DNA of 14,936 nucleotides from a bacterium (GTDB taxonomy: Bacteria > Sysuimicrobiota > Sysuimicrobiia > Sysuimicrobiales > Kaftiobacteriaceae). Below are positions 7,401-14,936 of the stretch, piece after piece. Within the stretch, counting starts at the first letter, position 1. The number at the start of each line of letters is the position of its first letter. Location of the stretch: NCBI GenBank assembly GCA_044868695.1, contig JBIOWP010000127.1:1-14936 (forward strand). The letters are read 5' to 3'. Made by a program: the position numbers.

Positions 7401-10400
7401 TTCCAGAGTGGGTTGCCGGCGGAGGCATACGCCTGGACTCTGGTCACGGGCGCCGCGTTCGGACTCATCCGGGCCCGCACGACAAACGCCGCCGGATTGA
7501 TTCTCCCTCACGCGATCGGCGCCGCGTTGTTCTCCGCCATCGCGTCTGTTCGGTAGTTCGCATCTCTGTTCGACACACGATCCTGCCGTTTGCCGGACGT
7601 TCCCCATGGCGCCCTCAGGGACTCTCCCGTGGTGACCCCGGGAGATCCCGCGTGACCCTCCAGGTTTTTTTGGATACCCATATCCCACGGCGTCGTGGTA
7701 CCACCGTGTGCGAGGGCCCTCACGGGGATCGCCAGCGGGCGATCCACCTCTGTGTGCAGGAGGTTCCTGTATGTTCCGACGATGGAAATCGCTGATCCCG
7801 ATGCTCCTTCTGGCAGTCGTGGCGTTTCCGGTACCGAATGCGTACGCCGCGCAGCAGGTGGTCACGTCCGCGACCATGGCCGCGAAGGTCGAGGGAACGG
7901 TGACCACGACAGAATGCAGCAACTCACCCGGGCCGTGGATTACGTTTGAAGGCAATCTGGCCCTGGGCGGCCTGACCGTCCGGATGCTCTTCAACAACAA
8001 CGTCAACAAGGACGTCCATACGGCGGAGGGCACGGTCAGCGCCGATGTCACCATCGTGGCGCCCGGCGGGAAGATCACCATCCCCAAGCAGCCGGTGCGG
8101 GGCGGCGCGGCGGGCAATCCGTTCATCTGGGTCCAGCTGGTCGAGGCACGGAGCGGCAACGCGCTCAGCGAGGAGATCTACCTCGGCCGCTGCGTGCAGG
8201 GGTCCTTCAACGTCAGTCCCACCACCATCCGGCTGCTGACCACAGCGCTGGCCGAAGTGTCGGTGGCCGACTGCACGAATAACCCCGGGCCGTTCATCTA
8301 CGTGGGCGGCGGACTGGGCCTCACGAACGGGCTGGCGGCGAAGTTCATCTTCCGCAACAACGACAATCCCGTGGGCGGTCCGCACGAGGCGGACGCCATG
8401 GCGTCTGTCGTGCTCGTACCGGCGGACTGGGACTTCAAGATTCCCAAACAGCCGGTCCAGGGCGGCGCCGGCGGCAACCCGTGGATCTCGGTGCAGTTCC
8501 TCACGGGGAACAGCCTGTTCGGCGATGTCGCGGAGTATCTCCTCGGACGCTGCGTGCAGCTGCTGCCGGGCAACTGATCACGCTTGCTTGGCAGGGTTCT
8601 TGGGACGGCCGCCGGTATCGGCGGCCGTCCCGCTGTGTCCTCAGGCAGGCGTGCGGTCTGGTATGATGAGGTGGAGATGACACTCGAAGAGATCAAGTCG
8701 CTCGTGGAATCCGACCGCGCCCGCCTCGAAGAGATCAGGAGGCATCTTTGACGTTCCCGCCAAACAGGCGCGCATCGGCTCGCTCGAGACCCAGATGCAG
8801 CGTCCAGACCTCTGGAGCAATCCCGATCAGGCGAAACGACTCGGACAAGAACTGAGCACGCTGCGGTCCCAGGTCGAGGGCCTGGCGATCCTGCAGCGGG
8901 ACATCGAAGACCTCGCCGTGCTGGCCCGCCTGGCCCAGGACGACCCCGCGGGGCTCAACCCGGGTGAACTCACCTCCGACGCCCAGCGGATCCACCAGAA
9001 GCTGCAGCAGCTCGAACTTATGACGCTGCTCGGCGGCGAGCACGACCCGAATAACGCCATCGTGTCCATCCACGCCGGGGCGGGGGGCACAGACTCCCAG
9101 GACTGGGCGCAGATGCTGCTGCGCATGTATACGCGGTGGGCCGAACGGCGGGCATTCGGCACGGAGGTTGTTGATTTATCCTCCGGCGAAGAAGCCGGGC
9201 TCAAGAGCGCGACCGTCATCATCAGCGGCCCATACGCCTACGGCTACCTCAAGGGGGAACGGGGCGTCCACCGGCTGGTGCGGCTCTCGCCTTTCGACGC
9301 GGCCCACCGCCGGCACACGTCGTTCGCTCTCGTCGACGTCATCCCTGACGTCGAGGAAGTTGACGTCACGGTGCGTGACGACGAGCTCAGGGTGGAGACC
9401 TACCGCGCAGGAGGGGCCGGCGGGCAGAACGTCAACAAGGTCGAGACCGCCGTCCGCATCACCCACCTGCCGACGGGAATCGTCGTCCAGTGTCAGAACG
9501 AACGGTCCCAGCACGCGAACCGCCTGACCGCGATGCGTCTGCTCCGCGCCAAGCTGGTTGAGCTGCAGGCCGAGCAGCACCAGCAGCGGCTGGCCGAGCT
9601 GCGGGGAGAGTACAAGGAAGCGGCGTGGGGAAACCAGATTCGATCGTACGTGTTGCATCCGTACACGCTCGTGAAGGACCATCGCACCGGCGAGGAGACC
9701 GGCGACGCGCAGTCGGTCATCGACGGTGACCTCGACCGGTTCATCAACGCCTACCTCAGGCGCCAGAGCCCGTCACCCGCATAGGGTGCCAGAGGGGTCG
9801 GTGCGCGCCGCTTCGAACTAGGAAACGTGCGGCGTCGCTGGCGGTGGCTGTGGCGGGTCGGCGTAATCGTGCTCCTCGTCGCGGCGATCAATCCCGCGCT
9901 GGCCTGGCGGCTGCAGGGGACGCTGCGCCGGACGCTGGCCACGCCGTACGTGACGGTCCGGCTCGTGGGCTGGCCGACCGCCGCCGTGACCGGAGAGTTC
10001 GCGCGCGTGACGGTGATCGTGCGGCGCGCGACGATCAGCGGATTGGTGGTCGATGAGTTCGCCGCCCGTCTGCGCGGCGTGCGGCTGGAGCCTCTGCGCG
10101 CGGGTCTGCGCGGCCAGTTCGTCATCCGTGCCGTGGAGGGCGGCAGCGCCATGGTGCGGCTGCTGGCGGACGACATCCAGCGCGCGGTGCAGGACCGCCC
10201 CTATGTCGAAGCCGCGACCGTGACGTTTGCAGGCGGCACCGTCCATGTCGCCGGTACGGTGGCGGCGGCGGGCGCCAAGGTCGAGGTGAGCCTGGCCGGG
10301 CGGCTGGTGGTCGAAGACACGCGGTATGTCGTGCTGCGCGTGGAGACGATGACGTTCCGCGGCCTGTCGCTGCCGCCTGGAGTGGCCAACCTGGTGATCG

Positions 10401-13400: not shown

Positions 13401-14936
13401 TGTCGCTGGAGTCCCTGCAGGCCGAGGCCGTCCGCCGCGAGCTTCGTCGAACGTGGGAGACTCGGGACTCGTGGCGGTCCCATGCGCGGGCACGCGCGGT
13501 AGCGCTGCGCGACGATGCGCGTCGCGCGGCGGACCTTGCAGCGGCGCTGTTGCAGAGGACAGAAGGAATTACTTATGGGCATACGAAATAGTGGAAGGCC
13601 GATGGAGGGACACGTGGTCGAAGCGAGGCCCGGGGCGAAGGGTCCGATGCCGGACGTGCTCAAGGTCGGGGCGGATTCCAAGCCCAAGGCCGTCGCCGGC
13701 GCGCTGGCCGCGGTGCTGCGCGAAAGAGGGTCCGTGGAGCTCCAGGCCGTGGGAGCCGGCGCGGTGAATCAAGCGGTCAAGGCGATAGCGATCACCCGTG
13801 GGTTTGTCGCCCCTAACGGGATTGACCTCGTGGCGATTCCCGCGTTCACCAAGGTGATGATCGACGGAGAGGAACGCACCGCCATCAAGTTCCTTGTGCA
13901 GGCCCGCTGACGGTTTTCCTCCGGCGTTTTTCAGGGAATTCCTGGTAATCTAGAGACGGCATGGACGGCTACGGGGAGCTGAAGCTCTTCTGCGGCACCG
14001 CGAATCCTCCACTGGGAGAGGAGATCGCCGGGTATCTCGCCGTGCCTTCCGGCCGCGTGACCATTACCCGCTTTGCCGACGGTGAGATCTACGTCCGGTA
14101 CGAAGAGAACGCGCGCGGGGTAGACGCCTTTGTGCTGCAGCCCACCTGCCATCCGGTCAACGAACACCTGATGGAGCTGCTGATCATGATCGATGCACTG
14201 CGCCGGGCCTCGGCCGGGCGCATCACCGCCGTGATGCCGTATTACGGGTATGCGCGCAAGGACAAGAAGGACGCGCCCCGGGAGCCGATCACCGGCCGGC
14301 TCGTCGCGGACCTGCTGACCACCGCGGGCGCGGACCGCGTGCTGACCGTGGACCTGCACGCCGGGCAGATCGAGGGCTTCTTCAACATTCCGGTGGACCA
14401 CCTGCGGGCCCTGCCGCTGTTTGCCGATTACCTGCGCGAGAAGCGGCTGCCGACCGCGGTCGTGGTGGCCGCCGACGACGGCACCGTGAGGCGCAGCAAG
14501 CAGCTGGCGGACCGGCTGGACCTGCCACTGGCCATCATCTTCCAGCGGCGCGTCGGCAAGGACGCGAAGGAACCGGTGCAGGTGGTGGGCGAGGTGGAAG
14601 GCCGGACGCCGATCATGATTGAGGACGTCATCAGTACGGCCGGGACACTGTCGGGCGCAGTGGATGCATTAATGCGCGAGGGAGCCCGGCCCGAGGTCCA
14701 CATCTGCGCGACGCACGCGGTGCTGGCCGGTCCGGCCGCCGACCGCCTCGCGCGCGACGAGATCCGCGAAGTCGTCGTGACGAACACCATCCCGCTGCCG
14801 CCCAGTATCCATCTCCCGAAGCTGCGGGTGCTGTCGGCCGCGCCGCTGCTGGCCGAAGCGATCCGGCGCATCCACGAAGACCAGTCGGTCAGCATGCTCT
14901 TCACATGACCGTCCGGACCCGCTATGCGCCGAGCCC

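Follow-up and report, generated by a model that had tools for sequence, protein, structure and literature searches.

Genes for a predicted pyruvylated wall glycan, and a candidate outer-membrane anchor, in an LPS-bearing member of the Sysuimicrobiota

The locus described here raises the question of whether an LPS-bearing member of the Sysuimicrobiota makes a pyruvylated secondary wall glycan and, if it does, whether that glycan holds its outer membrane to the wall. The chemistry of MnaA, TagA and CsaB is established in Paenibacillus alvei, as set out in PMC6030368, PMC10435577 and PMC6801904, and in both Thermus and Synechocystis (slr0688) the outer envelope is reported to detach when CsaB is lost. 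The first-pass annotation proposed that an lmeA-DUF5693-csaB operon, together with tagA and LCP genes elsewhere in the genome, provides the route to such a polymer, and that the polymer is a Thermus-type anchor for SLH proteins. Our analysis draws on genes, protein families, conserved residues, gene order and predicted folds; taken as a whole, these make a pyruvylated glycan of the Paenibacillus/Thermus kind the explanation that we favor on balance.

The window (the whole 14,936-nucleotide stretch of contig JBIOWP010000127.1 that was analyzed) carries the following genes around csaB:

8677..9784, + strand: prfB, release factor 2 (TIGR00020, 471 bits)
9827..10507, + strand: lmeA-like gene, DUF2993-type, with an N-terminal membrane anchor (PF11209, 73.3 bits, cut-off 27.3)
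10510..12498, + strand: DUF5693 gene, 662 aa (PF18949, 420 bits)
12506..13591, + strand: csaB, predicted ketal-pyruvyltransferase (TIGR03609, 274.2 bits, cut-off 213.1)
13602..13910 (start at 13602 or 13647), + strand: spoVS, a conserved downstream neighbor (PF04232)
13961..14908, + strand: prs, ribose-phosphate diphosphokinase, a conserved downstream neighbor

The proposed operon is borne out to the extent that its three genes are intact, lie on one strand and are separated by gaps of only 2 nt (lmeA-like/DUF5693) and 7 nt (DUF5693/csaB), each with a family match above its cut-off; a scan of the locus for promoters found none, and the two terminator-like sites in it are at chance level. The prfB gene, with its usual +1 frameshift at CTT-TGA (8746-8751), is a conserved upstream neighbor that lies outside the pathway; it stands upstream of DUF5693 in 37 of 80 loci compared across phyla. 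We rejected spoVS and prs as pathway members, since both are absent from all loci in this 80-locus set that are not Sysuimicrobiota-like.

As a single unit the operon holds less well. DUF5693 and csaB are adjacent in 87 of 94 genomes of the phylum (at least 60 had been claimed), but lmeA adjoins DUF5693 in only 66, and in all eight sampled genomes that lack it there, prfB is followed directly by DUF5693. We therefore rejected lmeA as a core member; its product is an optional accessory. An lmeA-like gene has the same place in the Selenomonadales and is missing from 8/8 sampled loci of other lineages, and the LmeA profile has no match in the Thermus or Deinococcus controls. Work on mycobacterial LmeA and the mannosyltransferase MptA (PMC7643837) describes a comparable arrangement, in which an LmeA-family periplasmic protein is encoded next to a membrane protein with a proposed role in elongating a lipid-linked glycan, although the match with the protein encoded here is at family level only and lmeA is optional here. 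In the accessible part of the Lipocone preprint, LmeA occurs only within the reference list.

The csaB assignment is the firmest point of the locus. Its product exceeds the equivalog cut-off of TIGR03609, while WcaK models score far below their own cut-offs, and residues Y8, Y9, F11, R137, R189, H265 and K285 align with positions tested in P. alvei CsaB. The tested positions Y14, F16, R148, R207, H308 and K328 correspond to Y9, F11, R137, R189, H265 and K285, by way of a Paenibacillus CsaB (locus L233) that stood in the alignment in place of the P. alvei sequence; Y13, Y14, F16 and R148 of this proxy share the P. alvei numbering, and its R211, H297 and K317 are numbered otherwise, with the histidine and the lysine still 20 residues apart. 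A search of PDB sequences with CsaB gave no match. We conclude that csaB encodes a predicted ketal-pyruvyltransferase in which the tested catalytic residues are kept.

The remaining genes of the route lie elsewhere in the same genome (G000), in four places in all rather than in one compact locus as in P. alvei; the positions of tagA, the LCP gene and ompM are:

C76:44106-44840: tagA (TIGR00696, 160.8 bits, cut-off 69), downstream of cdaA and flanked by glmM and glmS
C149:2750-4063, - strand: LCP gene (TIGR00350, 144.7 bits, cut-off 62.3, plus LytR_C)
C29:17284-18810: ompM, both ends matching Veillonella parvula OmpM1, downstream of lpx/lpt genes

The tagA and LCP genes had been correctly placed and assigned by the first-pass annotation, which had overlooked tagO-mnaA, a pair (adjacent in 12/12 loci examined) that heads an outer-membrane gene cluster ending in ompM. 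In G000 the pair is followed by spoIVB-like, tamB and bamA genes, the latter two on C27, and in the 21 genomes where the mnaA and ompM matches share a contig they lie on one strand, 26-38 kb apart. The description of this cell as LPS-bearing also agrees with the genes detected: besides bamA and tamB, contig C29 encodes lpxD, lpxC, lpxA, lpxI, lpxB, lptC, an lptA-like gene, lptB and lptF/G, and a weak LptD match lies on C76. The pathway gene set is thus complete for TagO, MnaA, TagA, CsaB and LCP. Apart from DUF5693, a candidate considered below, no dedicated flippase or polymerase gene is linked to the locus; five flippase-like and six Wzy-like candidate genes occur elsewhere in G000.

The pathway set is near-universal in the phylum. 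Among the 94 genomes, which include G000 and also G017 and G025, both unpublished and never the sole basis of a claim, matches above cut-off, mostly in single copy, were found for csaB in 83, tagA in 87, mnaA in 90 and DUF5693 in 92, and for LCP in about 90-91; TagO was checked in G000 and 12 loci. The wide presence reported earlier is upheld, but its counts of 76, 81 and 77 of 93 genomes for csaB, tagA and LCP were too low (83, 87 and 90 of 94). The adjacency of glmM and tagA, put earlier at no fewer than 39 genomes, occurs in 50, all of families f1 and f2, and is one of two layouts; in 32 genomes of families f4, f5 and f7, tagA directly follows csaB, between it and spoVS. An AU test does not reject a single clade of the glmM-linked and csaB-linked TagA of the phylum (p-AU 0.18), and the TagA tree itself leaves these copies unjoined. 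Envelope terms are absent from the main text of the two main papers on the phylum.

Acting together, TagO, MnaA, TagA and CsaB would yield a lipid-linked ManNAc-GlcNAc unit that carries pyruvate. Since their genes are encoded along with that of one LCP, and CsaB keeps its tested residues, a pyruvylated ManNAc-GlcNAc wall glycan is very likely to be made in this phylum, and the product in this cell would be a secondary wall glycan like that of Paenibacillus and Thermus. That part of the earlier proposal stands; the gene set does not by itself identify the ligand bound by OmpM's SLH domain. An alternative destination for the same sugars would be a glycan of the outer membrane (an LPS O-unit or an ECA-like polymer) fed by TagO, MnaA and TagA and pyruvylated there by CsaB. 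E. coli makes ECA with WecA, WecB and WecG, the control searches with the tagA and mnaA families both match E. coli, and tagO-mnaA sits among bamA, tamB and the lpx/lpt genes. We nonetheless regard this destination as highly improbable, given a CsaB above its equivalog cut-off, a conserved LCP, the presence of SLH domains, and the occurrence of a DUF5693-csaB-tagA-tagO block beside SLH genes in monoderm Paenibacillus.

The Paenibacillus comparison also bears on the second gene of the operon. Published descriptions of the P. alvei locus (PMC6030368, PMC10435577, PMC6801904) give the order orf1-csaB-tagA-tagO with slhA and spaA, and the likeness to the present genome extends to CsaB and its residues, TagA, TagO and MnaA. 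Four Bacillota genomes of large size that are Paenibacillus by their cluster names (G117, G239, G378 and G271) carry DUF5693-csaB-tagA-tagO followed by a gene of 1,300 aa that bears SLH domains in three of them, and one of these loci (L230) also encodes a 961-aa SpaA homologue. By synteny with these four loci, orf1 of P. alvei very probably encodes DUF5693. A search for the P. alvei locus in metagenomes with a primer-derived pattern gave 0 matches. In the literature searched, which left most subscription papers outside, no paper names DUF5693 or PF18949; PMC6030368 alone was found, through the locus tag PAV_RS07430. P. alvei is a monoderm with an S-layer, whereas the Sysuimicrobiota genome has LPS genes and a porin, OmpM, as its main SLH protein.

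According to reviews, it is still unknown how the P. alvei polymer is exported and its chain built, and the distribution of DUF5693 is suggestive in this respect. It is followed by csaB in 77/80 loci across Bacillota, Armatimonadota, Margulisbacteria and Atribacterota, and csaB is present in 181/186 DUF5693-positive Bacillota genomes. A Wzy_C protein occurs near csaB in 18/33 loci without DUF5693 versus 4/87 with it, and an LCP in 16/33 versus 3/87; the Fisher p near 1e-8 for these exchanges was set aside because related genomes are not independent. For Bacillus anthracis (csaA-csaB, with WpaA/WpaB of the Wzy/WaaL clan), which shares the TagO/TagA/CsaB/LCP/SLH logic, published accounts propose that a flippase and proteins of the Wzy type carry out export and chain building, and two genomes with a csaA-csaB-SLH layout (G162 and G201) yielded no DUF5693. 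We tentatively propose, at somewhat less than even confidence, that DUF5693 might be the missing polymerase or ligase of the wall glycan.

The predicted structure is compatible with an enzyme. In the AlphaFold2 model (pLDDT 95.1; 93 for the membrane domain modeled alone) an N-terminal helix precedes a beta/alpha barrel (residues 30-345) and a membrane domain with some nine more helices, in which R539, R555, R565, R567, H613 and R624 are invariant by conservation analysis. The invariant arginines and histidine are predicted to lie on one face, with the conserved charges at the helix ends on the barrel side rather than mid-membrane; the positive-inside count of the loops agrees weakly with the assumed topology and is not decisive. 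The barrel may be carbohydrate-esterase-like, with matches at Z 13.2 (1v6t, rmsd 3.8, 195 aligned), 12.4 (2nly), 11.4 (2i5i), 11.2 (ChbG) and 10.8 (CE4 2cc0), although unrelated TIM barrels also reach Z 10-11. Deacetylases of the CE4/NodB type carry an Asp-Asp motif following strand 1, as well as a pair of His residues; a deacetylase role was rejected here, as the alignment shows just D38 (86%) and a single His column (72%, with F in this protein).

Fold searches did not assign the membrane domain to a known family. Foldseek found nothing in the PDB at E 0.001 for the whole model or the membrane domain, and VIA gave a best Z of 7.0, to unrelated helical bundles, with none at Z 8 or more. WaaL appeared only at E 0.89 (TM 0.13), and GT-C, PAP2, MOP and BacA folds are absent from the listed matches of the membrane domain, which does not exclude them. 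PDB sequence searches with DUF5693 profiles gave no match, only PF18949 matches the sequence at E 0.01 when PF04932 and other GT-C profiles are included, and the ESM Atlas gave no usable match, either to the full-length protein or to residues 345-656. In these searches DUF5693 thus gave neither a sequence match nor a significant fold match to Wzy_C or WaaL, and it might be a glycan polymerase or ligase that depends on undecaprenyl pyrophosphate and belongs to a new structural class, a suggestion that we hold as tentatively as the role itself.

Two other roles have to be weighed. The exchange with LCP is as strong as that with Wzy_C, and the invariant arginine cluster would suit any pyrophosphate-binding site, so that DUF5693 might, instead of a polymerase, be a wall ligase or other transferase of undecaprenyl-pyrophosphate-linked units, analogous to LCP, or an undecaprenyl-pyrophosphate recycling enzyme. 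We consider this unlikely: DUF5693 genomes keep their LCPs (about 90-91/94 in the phylum, and three each in five Selenomonadales-like genomes), many of the LCP-csaB loci sit in one branch, starred in the CsaB tree, and no PAP2-like or BacA-like structure is among the top fold matches, which is not decisive. A role in flipping or exporting the pyruvylated unit, from the position that the Wzx-like CsaA occupies before csaB in Bacillus, is less probable still. Wzx/MurJ-like genes take the position of DUF5693 in 4/33 loci without it, and neither the Sysuimicrobiota nor the four Paenibacillus loci have a linked flippase; against this, a MurJ-like gene lies downstream in 9/87 DUF5693 loci, so both can share a locus, the conserved charges are not mid-membrane, and no transporter fold matched.

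Beyond chain building, the anchor has to be considered. In the literature, Thermus CsaB/SlpA, Deinococcus SlpA and Synechocystis Slr0688 represent systems in which the outer envelope is tethered through a pyruvylated polymer, and the Thermus and Deinococcus controls match csaB, tagA, mnaA, LCP, SLH and DUF5693, as in Sysuimicrobiota; a Synechococcus genome has csaB but no DUF5693 match. Thermus and Deinococcus are described there as lacking LPS, however, and SlpA has 1,167 aa against about 510 aa for OmpM. OmpM, detected with our query in 79/94 genomes, has a single N-terminal SLH domain, a coiled stalk and a C-terminal barrel, and among solved structures its nearest match is V. parvula OmpM1 (E 4e-21), ahead of Deinococcus SlpA (E 4e-18). 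The Negativicute OmpM/Mep45 proteins (OmpM1, PDB 8BYS) are thus its closest solved relatives, from an LPS diderm, and their reported ligand (PMC10628300) is polyaminated peptidoglycan.

The glycan might therefore exist and serve other SLH proteins, or act as a second ligand, while OmpM grips polyamine-modified peptidoglycan. Selenomonadales have the same secA-prfB-lmeA-DUF5693-csaB order, tagA and three LCPs, so the gene set does not show the ligand of OmpM. Nor do the SLH residues discriminate: the W, G and T/S-RYE arginine are kept in 28/28 parsed loci (of 30), and Negativicutes keep all three. The position of Veillonella Y36, whose role as a mark of polyamine binding is only a proposal in PMC10628300, is aromatic throughout the phylum (F in 18/28, including G000, and Y in 10/28; K in SlpA), and the Y of TRYE is likewise present throughout. 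Polyamines can presumably be made, given a pyruvoyl arginine decarboxylase (88/94 genomes) that in G000 lies beside genes named by eye as spermidine-synthase-like and agmatinase-like.

Other observations weigh on the opposite side. We take lysine/ornithine decarboxylases besides LysA to belong to PF02784 (fold III) or PF01276 (fold I). One PF02784 protein is present per genome in 80 of the 82 genomes with a match, LysA in the case of G000, where no PF01276 protein scores above cut-off, whereas a second, non-LysA fold-III enzyme occurs in 5/5 Selenomonadales-like genomes, in which the OmpM query also has 2 to 16 SLH matches. G000 has four SLH-bearing genes, with no S-layer protein among them, and its tagO-mnaA pair heads the cluster that closes with ompM. 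We accordingly judge polyamine gripping by OmpM to be unlikely, though a serious contender, and the use of the pyruvylated glycan by OmpM, which would tie the outer membrane to the wall, to be moderately probable. The Thermus-type anchor claimed earlier is in this sense the likelier of two readings and not an established one: its genes and SLH residues are present, but the same gene set occurs in Selenomonadales and OmpM is nearest to OmpM1.

Published work finds CsaB and SLH domains together with OmpM in most of the diderm Terrabacteria, for which CsaB/SLH anchoring has already been proposed, so that the extension of this rule to one more uncultured phylum is expected and useful rather than surprising. 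DUF5693 may matter more widely: as a near-constant partner of csaB with an enzyme-like site that alternates with Wzy_C, it makes the chain-building question testable. If our reading is correct, Paenibacillus, Thermus, Deinococcus, Thermotoga, diderm Firmicutes, Armatimonadota and Sysuimicrobiota would all use it to build their pyruvylated wall glycan, it would supply the step described as elusive for P. alvei, and it would belong to the core of an ancestral Terrabacterial outer-membrane tether. As a corollary, the Negativicutes would make a pyruvylated glycan too; the Selenomonadales keep the whole pathway, and the view that Negativicutes made a simple switch away from the pyruvylated glycan, to polyamine anchoring, therefore needs checking.

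The gene run that the first-pass annotation had described in the window is genuine, all three products scoring above the curated cut-offs of their profiles:

9827-10507, forward strand, LmeA (PF11209)
10510-12498, forward strand, DUF5693 (PF18949)
12506-13591, forward strand, CsaB (TIGR03609)

The two gaps are of 2 and 7 bases, and the operon is flanked by secA-lnt-prfB upstream and spoVS-prs downstream. Our phylum tallies cover 94 genomes, this one included, and count two unpublished genomes (G017 and G025) on which alone no claim depends. By the places listed for the matches, DUF5693 lies immediately 5' of csaB in 87 of them, for which at least 60 had been claimed, and lmeA directly before DUF5693 in only 66. 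Because prfB runs straight into DUF5693 in all 8 loci taken from lineages that lack an adjacent LmeA match, lmeA is an optional member. The CsaB of this genome groups with a row assigned to Ca. Sysuimicrobiota in our tree, in keeping with a phylum that is very probably Sysuimicrobiota (CSP1-3), and it keeps the residues important in P. alvei CsaB mutagenesis, as given in the consulted part of PMC10435577.

Several neighbouring features can be recorded in their own right. The prfB gene (8677-9784) carries the canonical +1 frameshift at CTT-TGA (8746-8751). Lnt (5562-7556), whose position before prfB is conserved across the phylum, is extended at its C-terminus by a fused domain resembling the CAAX protease Rce1, which scores 23.2 bits with PF02517 (cut-off 22.4). 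Neither a secreted protein of ~260-290 residues at 7708-8577, built of two similar halves with a Cys pair in each, nor a 218-residue protein at 2136-2792, between hpf and secA, matched any Pfam or NCBIfam family; most relatives' loci have no gap for the former between lnt and prfB. The spoVS gene lies 3' of the csaB operon throughout the phylum, prs occurs twice in this genome (within 13602-14908, after spoVS, and at C27:12435-13427, before tagO-mnaA), and a second, divergent LmeA-like gene lies outside the operon at C120:9188-9943 (E 2.6e-21 to the LmeA profile).

The remaining pathway genes are found on other contigs, with tagA and the LCP gene where the first-pass annotation had located them:

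C76:44106, tagA (TIGR00696), between glmM and glmS
C149:2750-4063, LCP (TIGR00350 plus LytR_C)
C27:11270-12394, tagO, adjoining mnaA
C27:10045-11238, mnaA, adjoining tagO

Matches in the phylum (above cut-off in brackets) number 89 (83) for csaB, 92 (92) for DUF5693, 89 (87) for tagA, 92 (90) for mnaA, 91 (90) for LCP and 84 (82) for LmeA, and an OmpM N-terminal query matched in 79 genomes; the wide spread reported for csaB, tagA and LCP thus holds, and the earlier figures of 76, 81 and 77 of 93 were lower. By listed places, glmM is immediately 5' of tagA in 50 genomes, all of families f1 and f2 (at least 39 had been counted before), and tagA is directly 3' of csaB in 32 genomes of families f4, f5 and f7, an adjacency absent from the earlier account and the strongest genomic tie between csaB and tagA. 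In the TagA tree the 12 glmM-linked proteins make up a single branch (99/97) within a starred group that also holds csaB-linked TagAs, to which it is not sister; a constraint keeping the phylum's TagAs together was not rejected (p-AU 0.18, 32 rows). The single f6 genome shows a third layout, its tagA (G092:C12:69289-69822; loci L033 and L273) adjoining neither csaB nor glmM. A record titled Betaproteobacteria (L103) holds a secA-prfB-lmeA-DUF5693-csaB-tagA block with a TagA that groups with Bacillota, and is probably mislabelled or a mixed bin.

The tagO-mnaA pair, adjacent in 12 of 12 fetched mnaA loci, is preceded in this genome by glmU and prs and followed by a spoIVB-like gene, tamB and bamA. 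In 21 genomes with both matches on one contig, selected by eye from the match listings, mnaA and ompM share a strand and are separated by 26-38 kb; these precursor genes therefore head an outer-membrane cluster whose end is ompM. A second TagO/WecA-like gene (C76:33211-34764, locus L076), with a CoA-binding-like C-terminal domain, closes a variable polysaccharide locus.

MnaA, TagA and CsaB have been reconstituted by Hager et al. (PMC6030368, consulted in part), and the pathway seen here is an expected further case of a known one. Suppression of pyruvylation in Synechocystis detaches the outer membrane, according to the part consulted of Kusama et al. (PMC9163127). Envelope terms do not occur in the main text of the two CSP1-3 papers. 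The LPS-bearing diderm cell that had been proposed is supported by the predicted lipid A and Lpt genes, skp copies, bamA and tamB, and four genes of this genome bear SLH domains:

C29:17284, OmpM
C152:3758-5665 (locus L246), SLH-SPOR-phosphodiester glycosidase (NAGPA)
C25, SLH-BsuPI protein
C53, 168-residue protein with a partial SLH domain

We take the chemistry of the NAGPA family to fit cutting of the GlcNAc-1-phosphate bond made by LCP, and the C152 protein could be a candidate for releasing the wall glycan at the septum.

The Thermus-type anchor suggested earlier has its genes, but these do not reveal the OmpM ligand, because Selenomonadales share them and yet Negativicute OmpM reportedly binds polyaminated peptidoglycan (Silale et al., PMC10628300, in part). 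The order secA-prfB-lmeA-DUF5693-csaB is seen in two fetched loci with DUF5693 clusters bearing the names Mitsuokella and Selenomonas, and tagA and three LCPs occur in 5 of 5 Selenomonadales-like genomes; L235 and L236, from two Selenomonadales (G334 and G125), keep the three-gene operon, tagA and three LCPs. We found no description of a pyruvylated glycan in Negativicutes in the papers examined. An anchor of the Negativicute type is likewise favoured by V. parvula OmpM1 being, among solved structures, closest to the OmpM of this genome, and by a pyruvoyl arginine decarboxylase (PF01862) in 88 of the 94 phylum genomes, which among 14 controls occurs in three archaea only. W, G and TRYE are conserved in Negativicute OmpM too, and Y36 is its distinguishing mark, in the same partly consulted paper; among the 28 OmpM loci parsed here, 18 have F at that position and 10 have Y. 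Against such an anchor, the Selenomonadales-like genomes differ in having a second, non-LysA fold-III decarboxylase (5 of 5), whereas in the phylum a single one is the rule (80 of 82 genomes with a match), typed as LysA in this genome, where a profile search found no fold-I enzyme. We consider polyamine anchoring rather unlikely, and that OmpM binds the pyruvylated glycan somewhat probable. Pyruvoyl arginine decarboxylase, spermidine-synthase-like and agmatinase-like genes form one run at C115:33264-35433.

For DUF5693, clustering at 50% gives 2,311 relatives, and a literature search found no paper under this name. Its profile matches Thermus, Deinococcus and Thermotoga, and csaB lies 3' of it in 77 of the best 80 of 597 loci (Bacillota, Armatimonadota, Margulisbacteria and Atribacterota). 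Among 301 sampled Bacillota genomes (DUF5693 scored above cut-off, csaB at E 1e-40), 186 have DUF5693, 181 of these with csaB; of the others, 67 have csaB and 48 lack both. An AlphaFold2 model from 146 sequences (pLDDT 95.1) predicts one N-terminal helix, a barrel (30-345) and about nine further membrane helices. The barrel's best fold matches are deacetylase-like (Z 13.2, 12.4 and 11.4; rmsd 3.7-4.1; ~200 aligned), with scores that barely exceed those of other TIM barrels, and the CE4 motif is not conserved; the barrel might bind a sugar. Modelled by itself (pLDDT 93.0), the membrane domain has no PDB fold match (best Z 7.0). R539, R555, R565, R567, H613 and R624 are invariant, and R23, E27, K479, E551, K569 and E570 are 97-99% conserved; by helix counting these residues would lie on the same side of the membrane as the barrel; we take that side as the outer face because of the basic N-terminus and single uncleaved helix at the start. 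A loop-charge check is weakly consistent with this topology, and such a site might suit a pyrophosphate-linked lipid substrate.

To ask which step this might be, we turned to the 67 Bacillota genomes that have csaB but lack DUF5693; 33 of them supplied csaB loci (those with listed coordinates, one contig-end locus left out), which were compared with 87 DUF5693 loci. Wzy_C-like genes occur in 18 of the 33 and 4 of the 87, although the latter are longer (mean 14.5 against 10.1 kb); most of the sequences behind the profile came from the former loci, but Pfam confirmed 11 members, and when the 13 other multi-helix ORFs of the DUF5693 set were run against Pfam, the same 4 came up. In four loci Wzy_C takes DUF5693's position immediately 5' of csaB-tagA. 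A CsaB tree of 65 rows, 37 of them with DUF5693 and the other 28 drawn from the 33 loci, requires the Wzy_C label to change only 4 times, with 2 of the changes imposed by starred branches, and the swaps are a few events, not 33. Tentatively, DUF5693 may be a polymerase or Wzy/WaaL-like transferase. LCP genes, however, alternate with DUF5693 in a like manner (present in 16 of the 33 loci and 3 of the 87). That DUF5693 is an LCP-like ligase or a carrier recycling enzyme we think unlikely. Wzx/MurJ-like genes occur in 4 of the 33 and 9 of the 87 loci, so a flippase and DUF5693 can share a locus, and that DUF5693 is itself the flippase seems quite improbable; a scaffold or other role is doubtful.

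The part consulted of PMC6030368 names an orf1 5' of csaB in P. alvei and assigns it no function, and that of a review from the same group (PMC6801904) calls the later pathway steps "elusive". In four loci of Paenibacillus type the order is DUF5693-csaB-tagA-tagO, and a gene for 1,300 residues comes next; locus L230 also encodes a SpaA homologue (E 8e-55 to 6CWC). By synteny of these loci with the published order orf1-csaB-tagA-tagO, their DUF5693 very probably corresponds to orf1. The pathway as a whole is coherent but expected, and the value of the present analysis lies in a testable assignment for DUF5693.
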